A stretch of DNA of 64,000 nucleotides from Escherichia coli. GTDB lineage: Bacteria; Pseudomonadota; Gammaproteobacteria; Enterobacterales; Enterobacteriaceae. Position numbers and translations under genes: made by a program. Under the pieces are notes generated by a model. The model was not told the DNA's origin. It saw only the letters and a program-made list of their open reading frames with translations, and did not search any database. Shown here in pieces: positions 183 through 47,511 of the stretch (position 1 is its first letter; each line of letters opens with the position of its first letter). Location: NCBI RefSeq assembly GCF_030013595.1, contig NZ_CP122768.1, one strand, 5' to 3'.

Positions 183-1616
183 CTAATTATTCTGATAAAT
201 ATCTTTATACAAACGGCTTTCAAAACGCACTAACGGAATACGGCGATTACGCTGATCCGCCGGTTCTACTGCATAGCCAGAAAGATATTGCACAAACGCC
301 ATTCGTTGCCCGCTCGCTGTGGTAATGAATCCCGCCAGGTTATATACCCCCTGCAACGAACCGGTTTTCGCTGATACTTTTCCATCCACGCCCGCCTGAT
401 GCAGACCTGCACGGTACTGCAAAGAGCCGTCATAGCCCGCCAGCGGCAGCATAGAGATAAAGTTAAGTTCATTGTCGTGTTGGGCTATGTATTGCAGCAC
501 CTGCATCATGGTGGCGGGGGCAATCAGGTTATGCCGCGAAAGCCCTGAACCATCGGCAATAATGGTGTTACCAATATCGACAACGGCTTGCTGGCGCAGG
601 ATCTGACGCACGGCGTCCGACCCGGCCCGCCATGTTCCAGGCACATTGAAGCGCGCATGGCCGATCATGCGGAAAACCGTATCGGCAATCATGTTGTCCG
701 ACTTTTTCAGCATAATCTTAAGCAGATCGTGCAGCGGGGCCGACTGTTTACTGGCAACTACCGTTCCAGGTTCGTTAACCTGAGTCTGGCGCAGCAGTGT
801 TCCACTCCAGGTGATACCCGCCTGTTTTAACTCATCTTTCAGAATTGCCCCGGCATAGCTGGCTCCATCCTGCACGGCAAAAGCCAACGGGAGCGGCTCA
901 GAACGTTGCGGCAGGCATCCCGTCAGCGTAAAGCGGTTCAGGTCGCCTGGTACGACATCCAGTTCGCAGTATTGCGCTTCGGCAGAACCACGGGGGAGGG
1001 TGCGTACCTGGCTGAACATCGTAACGGGGTAATAAGATGCCACGCGTATAAAAGCCATATCACCAGGTTTTGGGGCACTGTAGAGCGAGACGGAGAAACA
1101 GTTGCGGTCAACTATGGCGGCGGCAGGCGGAGCGCTAAAGCATTGTGTCATGTCATTCCATGGCCAGCCGGGGGCTTTATCGTGGCTGGCGAAAATGGAG
1201 GTATCTATCAACACATTGCCATCGATTTGGTTGACGCCAGATTTTTTCAAAGTCGCGACCATATTGCGAATATCCTGACGTTTTAACGTCGGATCGGCAC
1301 CAAATCGCGCCACTAAGTCACCCTTAAGTACGCCGTTTTCCACATTACCTTTGGTTTCAAGCGTCGTGGTAAAACGAAAATCGGGGCCGAGTTGAATCAA
1401 CGCCGCTAGCGCTGTAATCACTTTCTGCGTACTGGCGGGCAGCGCCATCTGCTGACTGTGGTAATCAATAGCGGGGGCCGACGCGCCGACTTTTTGCACC
1501 ATCAGGGCAAGGTTGGCACCAGCGGGGAGTTGAGTAATATACTCATCAACATTTGCGGCCTGAACACTGAACGCTATACAGCTGGTCAATCCGATGATAA
1601 ATCTGGAAAATCGCAT
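183..1616 (-). CDS. dacB: D-alanyl-D-alanine carboxypeptidase/endopeptidase, PBP4
   Basis: 477-aa ORF; translation recognised as E. coli DacB (signal peptide MRFSRFIIGLTSCIAFSVQA, STQK motif). Confidence 0.95.
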   Translation of the reverse strand: MRFSRFIIGLTSCIAFSVQAANVDEYITQLPAGANLALMVQKVGASAPAIDYHSQQMALPASTQKVITALAALIQLGPDFRFTTTLETKGNVENGVLKGDLVARFGADPTLKRQDIRNMVATLKKSGVNQIDGNVLIDTSIFASHDKAPGWPWNDMTQCFSAPPAAAIVDRNCFSVSLYSAPKPGDMAFIRVASYYPVTMFSQVRTLPRGSAEAQYCELDVVPGDLNRFTLTGCLPQRSEPLPLAFAVQDGASYAGAILKDELKQAGITWSGTLLRQTQVNEPGTVVASKQSAPLHDLLKIMLKKSDNMIADTVFRMIGHARFNVPGTWRAGSDAVRQILRQQAVVDIGNTIIADGSGLSRHNLIAPATMMQVLQYIAQHDNELNFISMLPLAGYDGSLQYRAGLHQAGVDGKVSAKTGSLQGVYNLAGFITTASGQRMAFVQYLSGYAVEPADQRNRRIPLVRFESRLYKDIYQNN

Positions 1617-22726: not shown

Positions 22727-24608
22727 ATTCGAAACCACTTTTGCAGATCTGGGCCTGAAGGCTCCTATCCTTGAAGCCCTTAACGATCTGGGTTACGAAA
22801 AACCATCTCCAATTCAGGCAGAGTGTATTCCACATCTGCTGAATGGCCGCGACGTCCTGGGTATGGCCCAGACGGGGAGCGGAAAAACTGCAGCATTCTC
22901 TTTACCTCTGCTGCAGAATCTTGATCCTGAGCTGAAAGCACCACAGATTCTGGTGTTGGCACCGACCCGCGAACTGGCGGTACAGGTTGCTGAGGCAATG
23001 ACGGATTTCTCTAAACACATGCGCGGCGTAAACGTGGTTGCCCTGTACGGCGGCCAGCGTTATGACGTGCAATTACGCGCCCTGCGTCAGGGGCCGCAGA
23101 TCGTTGTCGGTACTCCGGGCCGTCTGCTGGATCACCTGAAACGTGGCACTCTGGACCTTTCTAAACTGAGCGGTCTGGTTCTGGATGAAGCTGACGAAAT
23201 GCTGCGCATGGGCTTCATCGAAGACGTTGAAACTATTATGGCGCAGATCCCGGAAGGTCATCAGACCGCTCTGTTCTCTGCAACCATGCCGGAAGCGATT
23301 CGTCGCATAACCCGCCGCTTTATGAAAGAGCCGCAGGAAGTGCGCATTCAGTCCAGCGTGACTACCCGTCCTGACATCAGCCAGAGCTACTGGACCGTCT
23401 GGGGTATGCGTAAAAACGAAGCACTGGTACGTTTCCTGGAAGCGGAAGATTTTGATGCGGCGATTATCTTCGTTCGTACCAAAAACGCGACTCTGGAAGT
23501 GGCTGAAGCTCTTGAGCGTAACGGCTACAACAGCGCCGCGCTGAACGGTGACATGAACCAGGCGCTGCGTGAACAGACTCTGGAACGCCTGAAAGACGGT
23601 CGTCTGGACATCCTGATTGCGACCGACGTTGCGGCCCGTGGCCTGGACGTTGAGCGTATCAGCCTGGTGGTTAACTACGATATCCCGATGGATTCTGAGT
23701 CTTACGTTCACCGTATCGGTCGTACCGGTCGTGCGGGTCGTGCTGGCCGCGCGCTGCTGTTCGTTGAGAACCGCGAGCGTCGTCTGCTGCGCAACATTGA
23801 ACGTACTATGAAGCTGACTATTCCGGAAGTAGAACTGCCGAACGCAGAACTGCTGGGCAAACGCCGTCTGGAAAAATTCGCCGCTAAAGTACAGCAGCAG
23901 CTGGAAAGCAGCGATCTGGATCAATACCGCGCACTGCTGAGCAAAATTCAGCCGACGGCAGAAGGTGAAGAGCTGGATCTCGAAACTCTGGCCGCCGCAC
24001 TGCTGAAAATGGCACAGGGTGAACGTACTCTGATTGTTCCGCCAGATGCGCCGATGCGTCCGAAACGTGAATTCCGTGACCGTGATGACCGTGGTCCGCG
24101 CGATCGTAACGACCGTGGCCCGCGTGGTGACCGTGAAGATCGTCCGCGTCGTGAACGTCGTGATGTTGGCGATATGCAGCTGTACCGCATTGAAGTGGGC
24201 CGCGATGATGGTGTTGAAGTTCGTCATATCGTTGGCGCGATTGCTAACGAAGGTGACATCAGCAGCCGTTACATCGGTAACATCAAGCTGTTTGCTTCTC
24301 ACTCCACCATCGAACTGCCGAAAGGTATGCCGGGTGAAGTACTGCAACACTTTACGCGCACTCGCATTCTCAACAAGCCGATGAACATGCAGTTACTGGG
24401 CGATGCACAGCCGCATACTGGCGGTGAGCGTCGTGGCGGTGGTCGTGGTTTCAGTGGCGAACGTCGTGAAGGCGGTCGTAACTTCAGCGGTGAACGCCGT
24501 GAAGGTGGTCGTGGTGATGGTCGTCGTTTTAGCGGCGAACGTCGTGAAGGCCGCGCTCCGCGTCGTGATGACTCTACCGGTCGTCGTCGTTTCGGTGGTG
24601 ATGCGTAA
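22719..24608 (+). CDS. deaD: Cold-shock DEAD-box RNA helicase DeaD (CsdA)
   Basis: Start placed at [13 protein letters not shown] (629 aa); motifs [28 protein letters not shown] repeats in the C-terminal tail. Confidence 0.93.
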
Positions 24609-24651
24609 TCATCGCTGAACAGCGAACACAATCTGTAAAATAATATATACA

Positions 24652-24681
24652 GCCCCGATTTTTACCATCGGGGCTTTTTTG
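24652..24681 (+). terminator. deaD terminator
   Basis: agccccgat-ttttacc-atcggggctttttt. Confidence 0.6.
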
Positions 24682-24685
24682 TGCA

Positions 24686-25392
24686 CAGAAAACCCCCAGC
24701 TAGGCTGGGGGTTCCGGAAAGCTTTCAGCTTTGAGCCAGTTATTAAAACCCCTTTTGATTTGTTAAAACACCTTGCGGTCTGGCAACTGCAAGTGTCAAA
24801 CAAGAAATCAAAAGGGGGTCCCAATGGGGGACGAAAAGAGCTTAGCGCACACCCGCTGGAACTGTAAATATCACATAGTTTTTGCGCCGAAATACCGAAG
24901 ACTGGCGTTTTACGGAGAGAAGCGTAGGGCGATAGGCAGTATTTTGAGAAAGCTGTGTGAGTGGAAAAGCGTACGGATTCTGGAAGCAGAGTGCTGCGCA
25001 GATCATATCCATATGCTTGTGGAAATCCCACCCAAAATGAGCGTATCCGGCTTTATGGGATATCTGAAAGGGAAAAGCAGTCTGATGCTTTACGAGCAGT
25101 TTGGGGATTTGAAATTCAAATACAGAAACAGGGAGTTCTGGTGCCGAGGGTACTATGTCGATACGGTGGGTAAGAACACGGCGAAGATACAGGACTACAT
25201 AAAGCACCAGCTTGAAGAGGATAAAATGGGGGAGCAGTTATCGATTCCATATCCGGGCAGCCCGTTTACGGGCCGTAAGTAACGAAGTTGAATGCAAATG
25301 TCAGATCGTATGCGCCTGTTAGGGCGCGGCTGGTAACAGAGCCTTACAGGCGCATTTGAAAAACCTCCGGCTATGCCGGAGGATATTTATTC
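24686..25392 (+). mobile_element. IS200 insertion sequence (IS200/IS605 family), about 0.7 kb, boundaries approximate
   Basis: Contains an intact 152-aa TnpA nearly identical to my recollection of Salmonella IS200 TnpA; a perfect hairpin ccccagc-tag-gctgggg (24694-24712) and a second stem ccccttttgatt...aatcaaaagggg that would sequester the tnpA RBS are the IS200 left-end hallmarks; no terminal inverted repeats, as expected for this family. Confidence 0.8.
24824..25282 (+). CDS. tnpA: IS200 transposase TnpA (HUH Y1 single-strand transposase)
   Basis: MGDEKSLAHTRWNCKYHIVFAPKYRR...HIHMLVEIPP...: HxH (HUH) motif and catalytic Tyr region; 152 aa. Confidence 0.9.
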   Translation: MGDEKSLAHTRWNCKYHIVFAPKYRRLAFYGEKRRAIGSILRKLCEWKSVRILEAECCADHIHMLVEIPPKMSVSGFMGYLKGKSSLMLYEQFGDLKFKYRNREFWCRGYYVDTVGKNTAKIQDYIKHQLEEDKMGEQLSIPYPGSPFTGRK

Positions 25393-25400
25393 CTGTCTTT

Positions 25401-25423
25401 TGTACTCATGTACTGGTACAGTG
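25401..25423 (+). promoter_or_regulatory. TrpR-operator-like element at the mtr promoter
   Basis: tGTACTcatGTACTGGTACAGtg; repeated GTAC half-sites resemble the CTAG/GTAC-based TrpR operator, about 50-70 bp upstream of the mtr ATG; mtr is a known TrpR/TyrR target. Confidence 0.4.
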
Positions 25424-25472
25424 CAATGCATAACAACGCAGTCGCACTATTTTTCACTGGAGAGAAGCCCTC

Positions 25473-37956: not shown

Positions 37957-38820
37957 ATGAAACAACACCAATCGGCGGATAATTCTCAGGGCCAGCTTTA
38001 CATTGTACCGACGCCAATCGGCAATCTGGCGGATATCACCCAGCGTGCGTTGGAGGTATTACAGGCCGTTGATCTGATTGCCGCCGAGGATACGCGTCAC
38101 ACCGGTTTATTGCTGCAACATTTTGGGATTAATGCTCGGTTGTTTGCGCTGCACGACCATAACGAACAACAAAAAGCCGAAACGCTGCTGGCGAAGCTGC
38201 AAGAGGGGCAAAACATTGCGCTGGTTTCCGATGCCGGAACGCCTCTAATTAACGATCCTGGCTACCATCTGGTGCGTACCTGCCGTGAAGCGGGGATTCG
38301 CGTGGTGCCGCTACCCGGGCCGTGTGCTGCTATCACTGCGTTAAGCGCCGCGGGTTTACCATCCGATCGTTTTTGTTATGAAGGCTTTTTACCTGCCAAA
38401 TCAAAAGGCCGCCGTGATGCGCTAAAAGCCATTGAAGCGGAGCCGCGCACGCTGATTTTTTATGAATCTACCCACCGTCTGTTAGATAGCCTGGAAGATA
38501 TCGTAGCGGTATTAGGCGAATCCCGCTATGTCGTTCTGGCGCGTGAGCTGACCAAAACCTGGGAAACCATTCACGGCGCGCCCGTTGGCGAGCTGCTGGC
38601 GTGGGTCAAAGAAGATGAAAACCGTCGCAAAGGCGAAATGGTACTGATTGTCGAAGGCCATAAAGCACAGGAAGAAGACTTACCCGCTGATGCCCTGCGC
38701 ACGCTGGCGCTGTTGCAGGCAGAACTGCCACTGAAAAAAGCGGCGGCGCTGGCAGCAGAAATTCACGGCGTGAAGAAAAATGCGCTGTATAAGTATGCAC
38801 TGGAGCAGCAGGGAGAGTGA
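37957..38820 (+). CDS. rsmI: 16S rRNA C1402 2'-O-methyltransferase
   Basis: 287-aa ORF matching E. coli RsmI; divergent from lpoA. Confidence 0.93.
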
Positions 38821-38869
38821 TTACAGGCGTCGCAGCAGGAATAGCGTTGCAACGCCTGTAGCAGGCGAG

Positions 38870-39637
38870 TTAACGACGACACATCTCATCAATCATGCAT
38901 GTGAAATAGTTATGCAGCCATAAAAATGAAGCCGGGATAGCGGTAGAGACTTTAGCCGTGAGAAAACGTTCTGTCGCATCCTGCTTTCCTTCGCCAGTCA
39001 CCAGTAACAAAACTTCGCGGGCATTGAGAATATCCTTCAGGCCTAAGGTGATCCCACGAGTCACGGGACGGCCCGCGGTTTTTAACATCTCATGTTGCTG
39101 TGTTCTGGCATCAAGTTGACTGATATGGCAGGCCGGTTGCAGGTTTTCTCCCGGTTCGTTCAGCCCAAGATGACCGTTTTTCCCCAATCCGAGAACGCAT
39201 AAATCCAGACCGCCTTTGCGCGCAATCAGGTTCGTTACCCGTTCGCACTCTGTCTCATTTATCTCTTCGGAGCGAAAGCTGATGAGCTGGTCTTCACGTA
39301 GCCCCAGCGGCTGCACGATATGCTGTTGCAGGAAAGTTTCGCAGGTACCAGGCATCGTTAATGGCAGATCCACCCATTCGTCGAGCTTCACGAAGGTGAG
39401 CTGGCTGACATCAACCTGCTGCTGGTGGATTTTTTCTACCAGATAATGATACGTCAGTAATGGCGTGGCTCCGGTCGCCAGGCAAATCACGGCATCCGGT
39501 TTGCTACGGATCACGGCCAATAAATATTCGCTGGCACGTTCACTTAACGCCGTATAGTTTTCAACTTGTTGAAGGGTTTGCACAGGATGAAATTCCTTAA
39601 GTAAAGAGGCACCGCCAGACGCAGTGCCTCGTTCCAT
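38870..39637 (-). CDS. agaI: Galactosamine-6-phosphate deaminase/isomerase (NagB-like)
   Basis: 255-aa ORF, last gene of the aga cluster; start not independently verified. Confidence 0.85.
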   Translation of the reverse strand: MERGTASGGASLLKEFHPVQTLQQVENYTALSERASEYLLAVIRSKPDAVICLATGATPLLTYHYLVEKIHQQQVDVSQLTFVKLDEWVDLPLTMPGTCETFLQQHIVQPLGLREDQLISFRSEEINETECERVTNLIARKGGLDLCVLGLGKNGHLGLNEPGENLQPACHISQLDARTQQHEMLKTAGRPVTRGITLGLKDILNAREVLLLVTGEGKQDATERFLTAKVSTAIPASFLWLHNYFTCMIDEMCRR

Positions 39638-44281: not shown

Positions 44282-45415
44282 TCAAAACGAAGCTAATTGA
44301 CCCTGAATCCAGATTTGTTGCACATGCAGCCCGCTATCCAGCGCAACGACGCTGGCGCGTTTGCCCGGTTTAAGCGATCCCAGAACATCATCAACACCCA
44401 GCATACGCGCCGGATGCAGCGACGCCATATGGATGGCTTCCGCAGGCGTTACGTCCGTCAACTCGACCATATTGCGCACTGCCGCATCAACAGACAGCGT
44501 ACTGCCCGCCAGTCCACCGGACGCGGTACGGACAACGCCACCGTGCATCTGCACTTCTTCGCCACATAACGTATAGCGACCATCCGGCATCCCGGCTGCC
44601 TGCATCGCGTCGGTGATCAGCACGATTCTCTCTTTCGCACAGCAACAACACAGCGACATCGCCGCCGGATGCACATGATGACCATCGGCTATCAGTTCCA
44701 GCCAGGCGCGCTTGTCCGTTAATCCCGCGCCAACCATTCCCGGTTCGCGGTGATGTAAACCTGTCATCCCGTTATAGCAATGCACCAGGCCGTCGGCACC
44801 AGCGTCAAACGCGGCACGGGTTTGTTGCCAGGTCGCCGCGCTATGCCCCAGTATCACCCGTACGTTTTGCTGTTTAAGATGGCGGATGGCCTGCAATGCC
44901 CCTTCTTTTTCCGGTGCCAGCGCTACCACGCGCAAGGTGTGCTGAGAAACGGCAATCAATTGATCCAGCTCGGCAATTTCCAGCTCGCGAAACAGCTCCG
45001 GCGGATGCGCGCCTTTATTCTGCGGCGTGAAGTACGGTCCTTCGAGATAACTCCCCAGCACTTGCGCACCAGGTCCGCCGCGTTGGCAACGTTGAGCAAT
45101 ACGTTTCAGCGCCGCATGAATGGTATTAAGCGGCGCGGTTACGGTGGTCGGTAACCAACTGCCGACACCTTCGCGTGCTTTGTGCATTGCCAGCTTGTCG
45201 AGCACATCCGGCGCGTCATCCATTACATCAACGCCCGCACCACCATGTACATGGGTGTCGATGTAAGCGGGGCAGAGCAGTTCCGCATCGCGTTCAGTCA
45301 CGCCCACTGGAATCGGTTCGATTGCTGAGATTACACCGTCAGCAATACGCAACTGATGGTCATCGAGCCATCCCTCTTCAGTCAGCAGCCTTCTGGCGCG
45401 CAGAACGTGTGTCAT
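44282..45415 (-). CDS. agaA: N-acetylgalactosamine-6-phosphate deacetylase, full length
   Basis: Start placed at MTHVLRARRLL (377 aa); NagA-like metal-binding motifs; uninterrupted frame. Confidence 0.9.
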   Translation of the reverse strand: MTHVLRARRLLTEEGWLDDHQLRIADGVISAIEPIPVGVTERDAELLCPAYIDTHVHGGAGVDVMDDAPDVLDKLAMHKAREGVGSWLPTTVTAPLNTIHAALKRIAQRCQRGGPGAQVLGSYLEGPYFTPQNKGAHPPELFRELEIAELDQLIAVSQHTLRVVALAPEKEGALQAIRHLKQQNVRVILGHSAATWQQTRAAFDAGADGLVHCYNGMTGLHHREPGMVGAGLTDKRAWLELIADGHHVHPAAMSLCCCCAKERIVLITDAMQAAGMPDGRYTLCGEEVQMHGGVVRTASGGLAGSTLSVDAAVRNMVELTDVTPAEAIHMASLHPARMLGVDDVLGSLKPGKRASVVALDSGLHVQQIWIQGQLASF

Positions 45416-45846
45416 ATTCCTTCCTCGACCGGACATTCTTCATGGCAGCGGCCTAACTCGTCCACCAAACTGGTCAGCCCACGGTGTCCACACTCCAGCG
45501 CCTGCACACGGAACTCTTCACCGCTTAACCCTTCGCGCTCCAGCACCATCTCCAGTAGCAGTTGCAAATTGGTGCCGGTGATCACTTCACAGCCCGGTTT
45601 TTGCATCGCCAGCGTTGAAGCTACGCGAAACGGCGTGCCGCCCAGCAAATCCGTCAGAAAAACAATGCCGTCTTCACAATCGAGTTGGGCGATGGCCTCT
45701 TCAAGCTGCGATGTAAGCTGCGCGGTGCTTGAGGTTTCGGGAAAATCGATGGCAATAAACTGCGATTGCTCGCCGAGGATTTGCTTCATTGCTTTTTCCA
45801 TGCCACTGGCAAATCCGCCATGCCCTGTCAAAATAATACTTAACAT
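45412..45846 (-). CDS. agaF: PTS N-acetylgalactosamine-specific EIIA component
   Basis: 144-aa mannose-family IIA ORF, overlapping the agaA start by 4 nt. Confidence 0.9.
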   Translation of the reverse strand: MLSIILTGHGGFASGMEKAMKQILGEQSQFIAIDFPETSSTAQLTSQLEEAIAQLDCEDGIVFLTDLLGGTPFRVASTLAMQKPGCEVITGTNLQLLLEMVLEREGLSGEEFRVQALECGHRGLTSLVDELGRCHEECPVEEGI

Positions 45847-45863
45847 CTAATACCTCATTGTAT

Positions 45864-46748
45864 TTAAAGGAAATGACAGAATTTACCGACGATGCCGAGT
45901 ACCACGGTAACTGCAATCAGGCGCAGCGGACTCCAGCCGCGGCGTACCAGCCAGAACATGGTCAGGGTGTAGACCAGCGGTAAGAAGGCAGGCATCAGTT
46001 TGTCGATAACATCAGCCTGTAACTTAACCACTGCGTCGCCAGCGGTGATTTCCAGCGTGGTGCTTAAACGAACATAGGTTGCCACCAGCGCGCCGATTAC
46101 CGTCATCCCAACGATTGACGCAGCATGGCCGACTTTTTTGGTATTCGCTTTAATGAGTGGAATCGCCGCCACGCCCATGCGGTAAGCATAATGCGCCAGA
46201 CCAAAACGCAGCCCCAGGTGTACCACGTTGAACAGAACAATAAATACGACTGCGCCAAGAATGGAGCCTTGTAATGCCAGACTGGCACCAATCCCGCCAC
46301 AAATCGGCAGTAGCGTTAGCCAGAACATCGCATCGCCAATCCCGCCAAGCGGCGCACCGACGGCAATTTTGGTGCTCTGAATACTGTTAACGTCCTGCTT
46401 AGAACGCTCCATCGCAAGGATAATGCCGATAACAAACGTCACCAGAAACGGATGGGTATTGAAGAAACCCATATGCCCCTTCATGGCGCGCGCCAGGTCG
46501 CGTTTATTAGTGTGGATCTTTTTCAGAGCAGGCAGCAGACCGTACAACCAGCCGGAAGCCTGCATACGTTCGTAGTTAAAAGACGCTTGTAACAGCATGG
46601 AACGCCAGGCGACGCGGTTGATATCTTTTTTTGTCAGCTCCGCGCCAATACTCTGATCTTCATACACGTTTTCATTGACGCCTGTCAGCAGTGTTTCTTC
46701 GTTTTCACTGACGTTCGGCAGGGTGGTTTGATTAGATGCCATCTTCAA
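45864..46748 (-). CDS. agaE: PTS N-acetylgalactosamine-specific EIID component
   Basis: 294-aa ORF, paralogue of agaD. Confidence 0.9.
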   Translation of the reverse strand: MKMASNQTTLPNVSENEETLLTGVNENVYEDQSIGAELTKKDINRVAWRSMLLQASFNYERMQASGWLYGLLPALKKIHTNKRDLARAMKGHMGFFNTHPFLVTFVIGIILAMERSKQDVNSIQSTKIAVGAPLGGIGDAMFWLTLLPICGGIGASLALQGSILGAVVFIVLFNVVHLGLRFGLAHYAYRMGVAAIPLIKANTKKVGHAASIVGMTVIGALVATYVRLSTTLEITAGDAVVKLQADVIDKLMPAFLPLVYTLTMFWLVRRGWSPLRLIAVTVVLGIVGKFCHFL

Positions 46749-47511
46749 ATTCCTCTTTCTGTGCCGCAGGTTGAGTCGGTTCAGGAGATTTACGCAGCAG
46801 GTCGATCAGCGCCATCGCCAGCGCGGCGGCAGCAATAGCCAGCACCGGTAACTTGAGCCAGGCTGCGGCAACAAAGCCCAGGATGAAGTAGGGGATGTAG
46901 ACGTTTTTCATCATGATTTTCAGCAGCACGGCAAAACCGATTGCTGGCATGATGCCGCCCGCGACGCCGAGGCCGTCGATTAATCGTTGCGGCAGGACAT
47001 CAATGATGGTTTTGGCATGTTCTGCGCCGAAGTAGATAGGCAGGAAAGCGCAGAGAAAATAGAAAGTGCCGAGTGCCAACAGTGCCAGATAGTTCACGCG
47101 TTCAATGCCGCGTGTATCGGCGTTCTCCGCCATCCGGTCGCAGCGGGACATTACGCCAGACATCACCGAGAACAGGAAGGTAATCCCCATCTGTACTGCG
47201 ACAGCGAAAGGTACGGCGACACCGACCGCGACATCGGGTTTCACGCCAGTAGTAATGGCAAACGCCGTGCCGACGATAGTACCGATAATCACGTTAGGCG
47301 GCTGTGCGCCCGCCAGCGGGGCCAGCCCCATCCACACCAGTTCCAGCGTACCGCCGGTTAAAATACCGGTATGCAGATCGCCAAGTACCAGCCCGACTAA
47401 CGGGCCGAGGACCACCGGGCGGTGCATATGGGTTAAGCCGTTAAACATATCCAGGCCAGCGATAAAGGCGATAATGCCCAACGCGAATGCCTGCAACAGA
47501 CTGATTTCCAT
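46732..47511 (-). CDS. agaW: PTS N-acetylgalactosamine-specific EIIC component, full length
   Basis: 259-aa membrane ORF, paralogue of agaC, uninterrupted. Confidence 0.9.
   Translation of the reverse strand: MEISLLQAFALGIIAFIAGLDMFNGLTHMHRPVVLGPLVGLVLGDLHTGILTGGTLELVWMGLAPLAGAQPPNVIIGTIVGTAFAITTGVKPDVAVGVAVPFAVAVQMGITFLFSVMSGVMSRCDRMAENADTRGIERVNYLALLALGTFYFLCAFLPIYFGAEHAKTIIDVLPQRLIDGLGVAGGIMPAIGFAVLLKIMMKNVYIPYFILGFVAAAWLKLPVLAIAAAALAMALIDLLRKSPEPTQPAAQKEEFEDGI

Follow-up and report, generated by a model that had tools for sequence, protein, structure and literature searches.

How did a mobile element come to occupy the space between deaD and mtr in this stretch of Escherichia coli DNA, and what would it do to the genes on either side? 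The window analyzed here is the whole 64,000-nucleotide (nt) stretch of contig NZ_CP122768.1, and the element is best explained as a complete and apparently functional copy of IS200, an insertion sequence (IS) of the IS200 group of the IS200/IS605 family that carries tnpA only. It appears to have inserted recently, immediately after the final T of the deaD terminator, and to have divided the control region of mtr; we put the probability of this explanation as a whole at roughly 0.85. IS200 itself is a known element, and what is new is its position, which for this variant is not found in any of the 5426 complete E. coli genomes that served as our presence/absence panel.

Boundaries were obtained from an alignment of the window, the empty site of K-12, a genome in which an IS occupies this same site, and an IS copy from another locus; they place IS200 at 24681–25391 on the plus strand (711 bp). 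Because TT is present at both junctions, the frames 24679–25389 and 24680–25390 are equally valid, i.e. the ends are fixed to ±2 nt. The left boundary lies directly after the T-run of the terminator and the right one at ...GGAGGATATTTATT; removal of 24681–25391 recreates the empty site of genome HCP5S3_I2 (GGGGCTTTTTT followed by CCTGTC) exactly, after which the flanks differ from that genome by 1 mismatch in 4801 bp, and no target duplication or deletion was found at the junctions by comparison with the empty sites of K-12 and HCP5S3_I2. A first-pass annotation of this DNA, made from the letters alone, had proposed a single insertion of about 0.7 kb between the deaD terminator and mtr, and the exact restoration of the K-12 empty site bears this out. 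Its bounds of 24686–25392 found the element while starting 5–6 nt too far in on the left and running 1–2 nt too far out on the right, and its spacings of 865 against about 170 bp gave the right excess from slightly wrong values: from the deaD stop codon, which ends at 24608, to the mtr ATG there are 864 bp in the window vs 153 bp in K-12, a difference of exactly 711. The ends (GTGCAC... and ...TTTATT) form no inverted repeats, and subterminal hairpins are present at both. Their positions are supported by the loss of similarity beyond them among 13 independent E. coli copies, in all 13 of which the right terminus is invariant through ...ATATTTATT and the sequences that follow are unrelated. The variant shares 96.2% of its nucleotides with RefSeq copies annotated as IS200C and all of them (100%) with copies, at other loci, that are annotated as IS200/IS605 family transposase WP_000502112.1.

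The only long sense open reading frame (ORF) of the insert is tnpA (24824–25282, plus strand), and there is no tnpB. As the first-pass annotation had it, tnpA is uninterrupted and encodes a 152-residue HUH transposase of the Y1 type, which is assigned to Pfam Y1_Tnp (“Transposase IS200 like”) with an E value of 9e-37 and to the NCBIfam equivalog NF033573 (transpos_IS200) with 144 bits, where the cut-off is 55. The protein can be aligned with the solved Y1 transposases 2ec2, 2f4f, 2a6m (IS608 TnpA) and 2xm3 (ISDra2 TnpA), and its motifs, DHIH at residues 60–63 (HIH 61–63) and RGYYVDTVG from residue 108 (RGYYV 108–112), fall where DHIH and R(G/S)Y(Y/F)V are kept across these structures, 2ec2 having DHIH and RSYFV.

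Both left-end stem-loops that had been noticed at first pass are also present. The outer one is a perfect hairpin, AACCCCCAGC-TAG-GCTGGGGGTT, at 24691–24713 on the plus strand, with a 10-bp stem and a folding energy of −18.7 kcal/mol; measured, like all fold z-scores given here, against dinucleotide-preserving shuffles, it has a z of −3.45, and 2 of 200 shuffles fold equally well. It is the counterpart of nt 12–34 of Salmonella IS200, a bidirectional terminator (Ellis et al. 2015, PMC4513863). The inner one (24749–24817, plus strand) has 16-nt arms of 94% complementarity, CCCCTTTTGATTTGTT at 24749–24764 and AAGAAATCAAAAGGGG at 24802–24817, and in the minimum free energy structure the Shine-Dalgarno (SD) sequence AAAAGGGG is paired with CCCCUUUU (z −4.6, 0 shuffles folding as well), much as Salmonella IS200 has an SD-sequestering stem-loop at nt 69–138 (PMC4513863). 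The Rfam family STnc490 (IS200 5′ region) is matched at 24691–24814 over its full length, 1–124, with a score of 146 bits, the gathering threshold being 56. Opposite the 5′ untranslated region of IS200 lies the 90-nt antisense RNA art200 (Ellis 2015, PMC4513863; Ellis et al. 2017, PMC5435999), and by homology this small RNA is predicted at 24743–24832 on the minus strand, in a region nearly identical to the Rfam consensus built from Salmonella. At the right end there are an internal hairpin (25310–25355, plus strand) with 14-nt arms of 93% complementarity and a terminal hairpin, CCTCCGGC-TAT-GCCGGAGG at 25364–25382, which together with its T-rich tail ATATTTATT (25364–25391, plus strand) is terminator-like on both strands; the right-end fold including the internal hairpin reaches −44.7 kcal/mol (z −6.2, 0 shuffles folding as well). 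Four further Rfam matches were rejected as sub-threshold: an antisense STnc490 match of 21 bits, due to the palindromic hairpin, Ysr202 (26.9 bits vs a gathering score of 315), SpF11 and anti-hemB.

What the first-pass annotation overlooked is that the last T of the terminator is a characteristic IS200-group target. The deaD intrinsic terminator (24651–24680, plus strand) combines a GC-rich 9-bp stem (6 GC pairs) with a loop of 7 nt and a tract of six T (T6), in the layout AGCCCCGAT-TTTTACC-ATCGGGGCT then TTTTT, and was detected by terminator scan and RNA fold (−15.5 kcal/mol, z −4.5). K-12 and HCP5S3_I2 carry this terminator unaltered at their empty sites. IS200 went in at the 3′ end of the terminator's T-tract, and the top strand of the element is co-oriented with deaD. 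The same arrangement recurs at 13 distinct sites in E. coli, eight of which came from a search with the IS only and are hence free of bias from flank similarity: the element is co-oriented with the upstream gene at 13/13, and at 12/13 a GC-rich hairpin and T-run adjoin its first base, GTGCACAG....

To look beyond E. coli, one genome per species was scanned for the 19-mer of the left-end hairpin, which gave at least 120 loci. Among the matches listed are Yersinia pestis (IS1541), Vibrio, Brenneria, Dickeya, Edwardsiella, Budvicia and Pluralibacter, and, in metagenome-assembled genomes (MAGs), Oxalobacter, Mailhella/Desulfovibrio, Bacillota, Peptococcaceae, Elusimicrobia and Saccharibacteria (loci L019–L100), so that the presence of the 19-mer in very distant taxa indicates a wide horizontal spread of this IS200 subgroup. 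The 12–13 nt between IS end and hairpin vary among sublineages and therefore mark the true IS end, and upstream of that end the sequences are unrelated and yet nearly always consist of a hairpin and a T-tract. Under a strict test, which asked for a perfect stem and for a T-tract whose end coincides with the position, this arrangement is found at 78 or more of 97 distinct occupied sites among the matches listed (80%), compared with 4/457 random positions in the same loci (0.9%) and 373/4063 other ends of runs of at least five T (9.2%); the 19 sites that fail are mostly visibly imperfect hairpins. Y. pestis IS1541, Vibrio, Brenneria, Mailhella, Desulfovibrio, Oxalobacter and Bacillota all show terminator placement. 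Left out of the flank statistics were Ruminococcus L101–L111 and loci L045, L047, L048, L079 and L088, where the 19-mer stands in a different repeat context. Placement at the end of an intrinsic terminator is thus a strong, general and well supported rule of the IS200 group. Among ISs, according to a preprint of 2025–26, the IS200/IS605 family shows the strongest enrichment of terminator-like sequences upstream, and an explicit earlier statement that IS200 or IS1541 targets terminators was not found in the searchable literature, by which novelty is not proven.

Several observations accompany these sites. In distant taxa the 19-mer often lies about 90–110 nt from contig ends, as repeats that break assemblies would be expected to. 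Head-to-tail junctions, at which the right end ...GGAGGATATTTATT is directly joined to the left end of the next copy, occur in Y. pestis NCTC5923 (L113, L114, L116, L130) and in a MAG of Mailhella massiliensis (L092); these could be tandem copies or circle-junction-like joins, and they imply that IS200's own right end, a hairpin with a T-rich tail, is used as a similar target. A solo 43-nt perfect palindrome, GTCTATAGAAAACCCCCAGCTAGGCTGGGGGTTTTCTATAGAC, lies between two convergent terminators in Dickeya undicola (L090, match 699–717, minus strand) and joins the left terminus of the IS and the hairpin to an inverted copy of both, with no tnpA. In the Ruminococcus MAG RUG14215 (L101–L111, L045, L048) the 19-nt hairpin stands within AATAAGCAT-hairpin-TATTTCTTTAAC, often at contig ends, a repeat context that is probably the end of another element of IS200/IS605 type. 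In the window itself the left junction creates a 16-nt imperfect palindrome at 24670–24697 (GGGGCTTTTTTGTGCA / TGCACAGAAAACCCCC), and the left terminus of the IS, AGAAAACCCCC, is complementary to the 3′ arm and T-tract of the terminator.

A mechanism for this placement may be sketched from the family. Movement would be of the single-strand “peel and paste” kind, in which TnpA cuts out the top strand in circular form and this circle would enter single-stranded DNA at the replication fork, on the 3′ side of a short target; the presence/absence polymorphism with its exact junctions is indirect evidence of such movement. GC skew on the plus strand is +0.03 to +0.07 across 1–40 kb of the window, which puts the IS top strand on the lagging-strand template, as the family expects. 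In K-12, deaD and mtr are on the minus strand at 3.30 Mb, a position in the left replichore, and both genes are therefore co-directional with replication. The preferred target of IS200 would then be a hairpin followed by a T-run, resembling its own right end (hairpin and ATATTTATT). Directly 5′ of both the left-end and the right-end hairpins stands GAAAA(A). In IS608 the 4 nt 5′ of the hairpin foot reportedly select the cleavage site by base pairing (Barabas et al. 2008), and by analogy GAAAA(A) is a likely guide that would pair with T-rich cleavage sites.

Distribution bears on the age of the insertion. IS200 sequence is present in 2641 of the 5426 complete genomes, with a copy that spans 80% or more of it in 2063 and a median of 2 and a maximum of 35 places per positive genome, so that the earlier description of IS200 as uncommon in E. 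coli was mistaken. The same annotation's suggestion of a strain or lineage marker fares better: the deaD–mtr site is without IS200 in K-12 and in 5410/5426 genomes and is therefore usable as a strain marker. Neither outcome that would have spoken against that annotation is seen: the element does match the IS200/IS605 family, and the same 0.7 kb is not present at this site in all E. coli, only 16 genomes being occupied there. These 16 are 99.7–100% identical to each other over 2.2 kb, 14 of them 100% identical, and therefore represent one clonal lineage, whose relatives with 99.9% identical flanks have an empty site. Their element is IS200C, which differs from that of the window at 27 of 711 nt (22 of them in tnpA, with 4 amino-acid changes) and stands at the same insertion nucleotide; IS200C hit this nucleotide independently of the window insertion. 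The window's own variant occurs at deaD–mtr in 0/5426 genomes and matches, at 100% identity, the copies located at ybiJ/hcxB (strain N3) and fdnI/yddM (FXCREC043). The closest complete genomes, HCP5S3_I2 and LCP30S3_I5, are 100% identical to the window over 10.7 kb of left flank; HCP5S3_I2 has an empty 153-bp deaD–mtr spacer, and for LCP30S3_I5 no junction-spanning match was returned in the search of complete E. coli genomes. The simplest reading of these sequences would be a recent de novo insertion on the branch of the window strain.

The element also divides the control region of mtr, a point that makes the first-pass placement directly upstream of the mtr operator/promoter correct and incomplete at once, as the TyrR box lies on the far side of the IS. 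The gene (tryptophan permease; 25473–26717, plus strand) is intact, with a 414-residue ORF that is annotated as mtr in matching genomes. It is repressed by TrpR and activated by TyrR (papers cited in PMC4374768); activation, about 2–3 fold with Phe/Tyr, acts through the C-terminal domain of the RNA polymerase alpha subunit (alpha-CTD; PMC4374768). The strong TyrR box has its centre 42 bp upstream of the −35 (PMC4374768, citing Sarsero & Pittard 1991), and a weak box lies farther up (PMC4374768). In the window the strong box, TGTAAAATAATATATACA, is at 24634–24651 on the plus strand, agrees with TGTAAA-N6-TTTACA at 17/18 positions and is the only 1-mismatch match to a TyrR box in the 64 kb, and in the empty site its centre falls about 40–45 bp upstream of the candidate −35. 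The core promoter region, recognized by reading the sequence, is at 25394–25428 (plus strand) and includes a Trp-operator-like palindrome, GTACTCATGTACTGGTAC, at 25402–25419, the two starting 3–10 nt past IS200. Candidates on the plus strand are TGTCTT (25394–25399) or TTGTAC (25400–25405) for the −35 and TACAGT (25418–25423) or TGCAAT (25423–25428) for the −10. IS200 lies between the strong box and this promoter and operator and has pushed the boxes 711 bp away, the distance from box to −35 now being about 750 bp vs about 42 bp, so that the sequence is kept and the activating geometry lost. Activation of mtr by TyrR through the alpha-CTD is predicted to be probably abolished, and mtr is predicted to be still repressible by TrpR through the kept core promoter and Trp operator.

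Upstream, deaD would retain its terminator. IS200 would be transcriptionally insulated by its left-end terminator hairpin and terminator-like right-end hairpin, and tnpA would be kept repressed by the SD-sequestering stem-loop together with art200. A promoter scan found no outward sigma-70-like promoter in the right end. A TyrR-like sequence, TGGTAACAGAGCCTTACA, does occur in the right end of the IS at 25331–25348, about 55–60 bp upstream of the mtr −35 and with G-N14-C kept; as a substitute activator site it was rejected, having 3 mismatches, a number of matches (24) that equals expectation (25) and the wrong distance. Two substitutions relative to K-12 lie beside the IS, 25408 G>A in the Trp-operator-like palindrome and 25392 T>C after T6, the terminator keeping six of K-12's seven T and the seventh being C in the lineage even at the empty site; both are common to the empty-site genome HCP5S3_I2 and were therefore not caused by the insertion.

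Could the association with terminators be no more than survivorship, IS200 entering T-rich sites generally and persisting where copies after genes are harmless? Intragenic insertions are expected to be purged, and since the control of other T-run ends contains runs within genes, selection could account for some of the 9-fold enrichment. We nevertheless regard survivorship as distinctly unlikely: the position is exact to the nucleotide (the final T of the tract), only one orientation occurs, with the IS top strand always the strand that bears the T-tract, the pattern holds in unrelated hosts and IS sublineages at no less than 80% of sites vs 0.9% of random positions, two independent insertions struck the same deaD–mtr nucleotide, and the element's own hairpin and T-rich tail are used too. 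Exactness, fixed orientation and recurrence at one nucleotide together argue for mechanistic targeting over survivorship alone. Nor do we think it likely that the copy is a dead relic, without activity or regulatory effect and of interest as a neutral marker only. IS200 is strongly self-repressed and seldom mobile (PMC4513863, PMC5435999) and the TyrR effect on mtr is small (PMC4374768), but the ORF, catalytic motifs and end structures are intact and identical to copies that have evidently spread to 12–35 sites per genome, the empty site of the closest relative implies at least one recent movement, and the TyrR boxes have been physically moved away from the mtr promoter.

Two other histories of the site itself compete with recent insertion. 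The insertion might be old in the lineage and the empty site of the relatives the result of precise excision, of which the IS200/IS605 family is capable, with restoration of the donor site (PMC5027513), and the near-identical relatives are only two and probably one clone. This seems decidedly improbable when other listed genomes with 99.1–99.4% identical flanks are unoccupied as well, the junctions being covered only by the 16 genomes of the IS200C lineage, when the window IS200 is 100% identical to copies at other loci, and when excision and transposition of IS200 are notoriously rare (PMC4513863). Import of an occupied site by homologous recombination from a lineage that bears IS200 is suggested by the lineage that has IS200 at exactly this position, but the element there is IS200C, with its 27 nt and 4 residues of difference, there are 5 differences in 230 nt between the flanks of that lineage and those of the window, against 1 in 4801 for the empty-site relative, and no complete genome has the window variant at deaD–mtr; we think such import very improbable indeed. 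Recent de novo transposition into the deaD terminator is thus preferred, and several points still weigh against it or against parts of it. Loss by precise excision in two close relatives, though less parsimonious than gain, would give the same pattern; selection against intragenic insertions could add to the terminator enrichment; and the preference is not absolute, as insertions of IS200 and IS1541 within genes (hisD984, inv) are known. Pairing of GAAAA with T-tracts is likely only by analogy, the exact −35 and −10 hexamers of mtr and its weak TyrR box are candidate placements, and the effect on mtr is purely a prediction, the known TyrR effect being small at about 2–3 fold.

Compared with known systems the copy is closest to IS200 of Salmonella enterica and E. 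coli (ISfinder isoforms IS200A–G; “IS200C” in the Prokaryotic Genome Annotation Pipeline, PGAP), with which it shares its length (711 bp vs 707–711), the single 152-residue tnpA, the left-end terminator hairpin, the SD stem-loop, the art200 region, the right-end hairpins, and the lack of inverted repeats and target duplication; from IS200C it differs by the 27 nt and 4 residues already given, none of them structural, and by a position new for the variant. IS1541 of Y. pestis and Y. pseudotuberculosis has the same left-end hairpin 19-mer, a near-identical right end (...CCTCCGGCTATGCCGGAGGATATTTATT) and the same placement directly after the hairpin and T-tract of host terminators (L112–L138), whereas its left terminal 12 nt differ (GTGCCCAGAAAA vs GTGCACAGAAAA), its copy number is much higher and it forms head-to-tail tandems. 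IS608 of Helicobacter pylori and ISDra2 of Deinococcus radiodurans have homologous Y1 HUH TnpA proteins (E 3e-19 and 5e-16 against the solved structures) and subterminal hairpins; they too insert 3′ of a short specific sequence, cause no duplication and have their top strand on the lagging-strand template, but they carry tnpB and use a plain tetra- or pentanucleotide target (TTAC, TTGAT), while IS200 is without tnpB and has a structured target. Group IIC (bacterial class C) introns reportedly insert just downstream of intrinsic terminator stem-loops, as a “safe harbour” (Robart, Seo & Zimmerly 2007); they consist of a ribozyme and reverse transcriptase, not an HUH transposase acting on single-stranded DNA, and the analogy is one of niche only.

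The rest of the window is collinear with K-12 3,262,000–3,335,000 at 97–99% identity by BLAST. The first-pass view of IS200 as the only mobile element in a core window agrees with the absence of any other IS-sized insertion relative to K-12 in this comparison; no second IS200 copy was found in the 64 kb, and the annotation of the corresponding K-12 region lists no mobile element. The yraHIJK fimbrial operon (about 5.5 kb, K-12 3286994–3292479) is absent and about 100 bp stand in its place at 38813–38913, and at 44840–47136 there is a segment of about 2.3 kb between agaW and agaA that is missing from K-12. In K-12 agaW and agaA are pseudogenes through a known deletion, and the aga cluster looks intact in the window. 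The remaining differences from K-12 are small intergenic or repeat changes.

The overall interest of this IS200 copy is modest, and it has several aspects. It is a clean presence/absence marker, since the variant is at this site in none of the complete genomes and the 16 filled sites have another variant, and it is a caution for annotation, where pairs of a terminator and the IS200 left-end hairpin can be misread. It is also a natural experiment in which the TyrR boxes are severed from an intact TrpR-controlled promoter, predicting that tryptophan uptake would not be induced by Phe/Tyr. More broadly, the post-terminator placement of the IS200 group in E. coli, Yersinia, Vibrio and distant gut anaerobes bears on target choice by the smallest autonomous IS and on its harmlessness. 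We suggest tentatively, as something possible rather than probable, that IS200-group transposases recognize intrinsic terminators in single-stranded DNA as structured targets that mimic their own right end. If so, this would explain the harmless niche “after the gene” and the persistence of the group across phyla, the repeated hits at one nucleotide, as at the deaD terminator, and the occasional rewiring of downstream promoters or attenuators, such as that of mtr here and of the disrupted pheL–pheA region in Yersinia.

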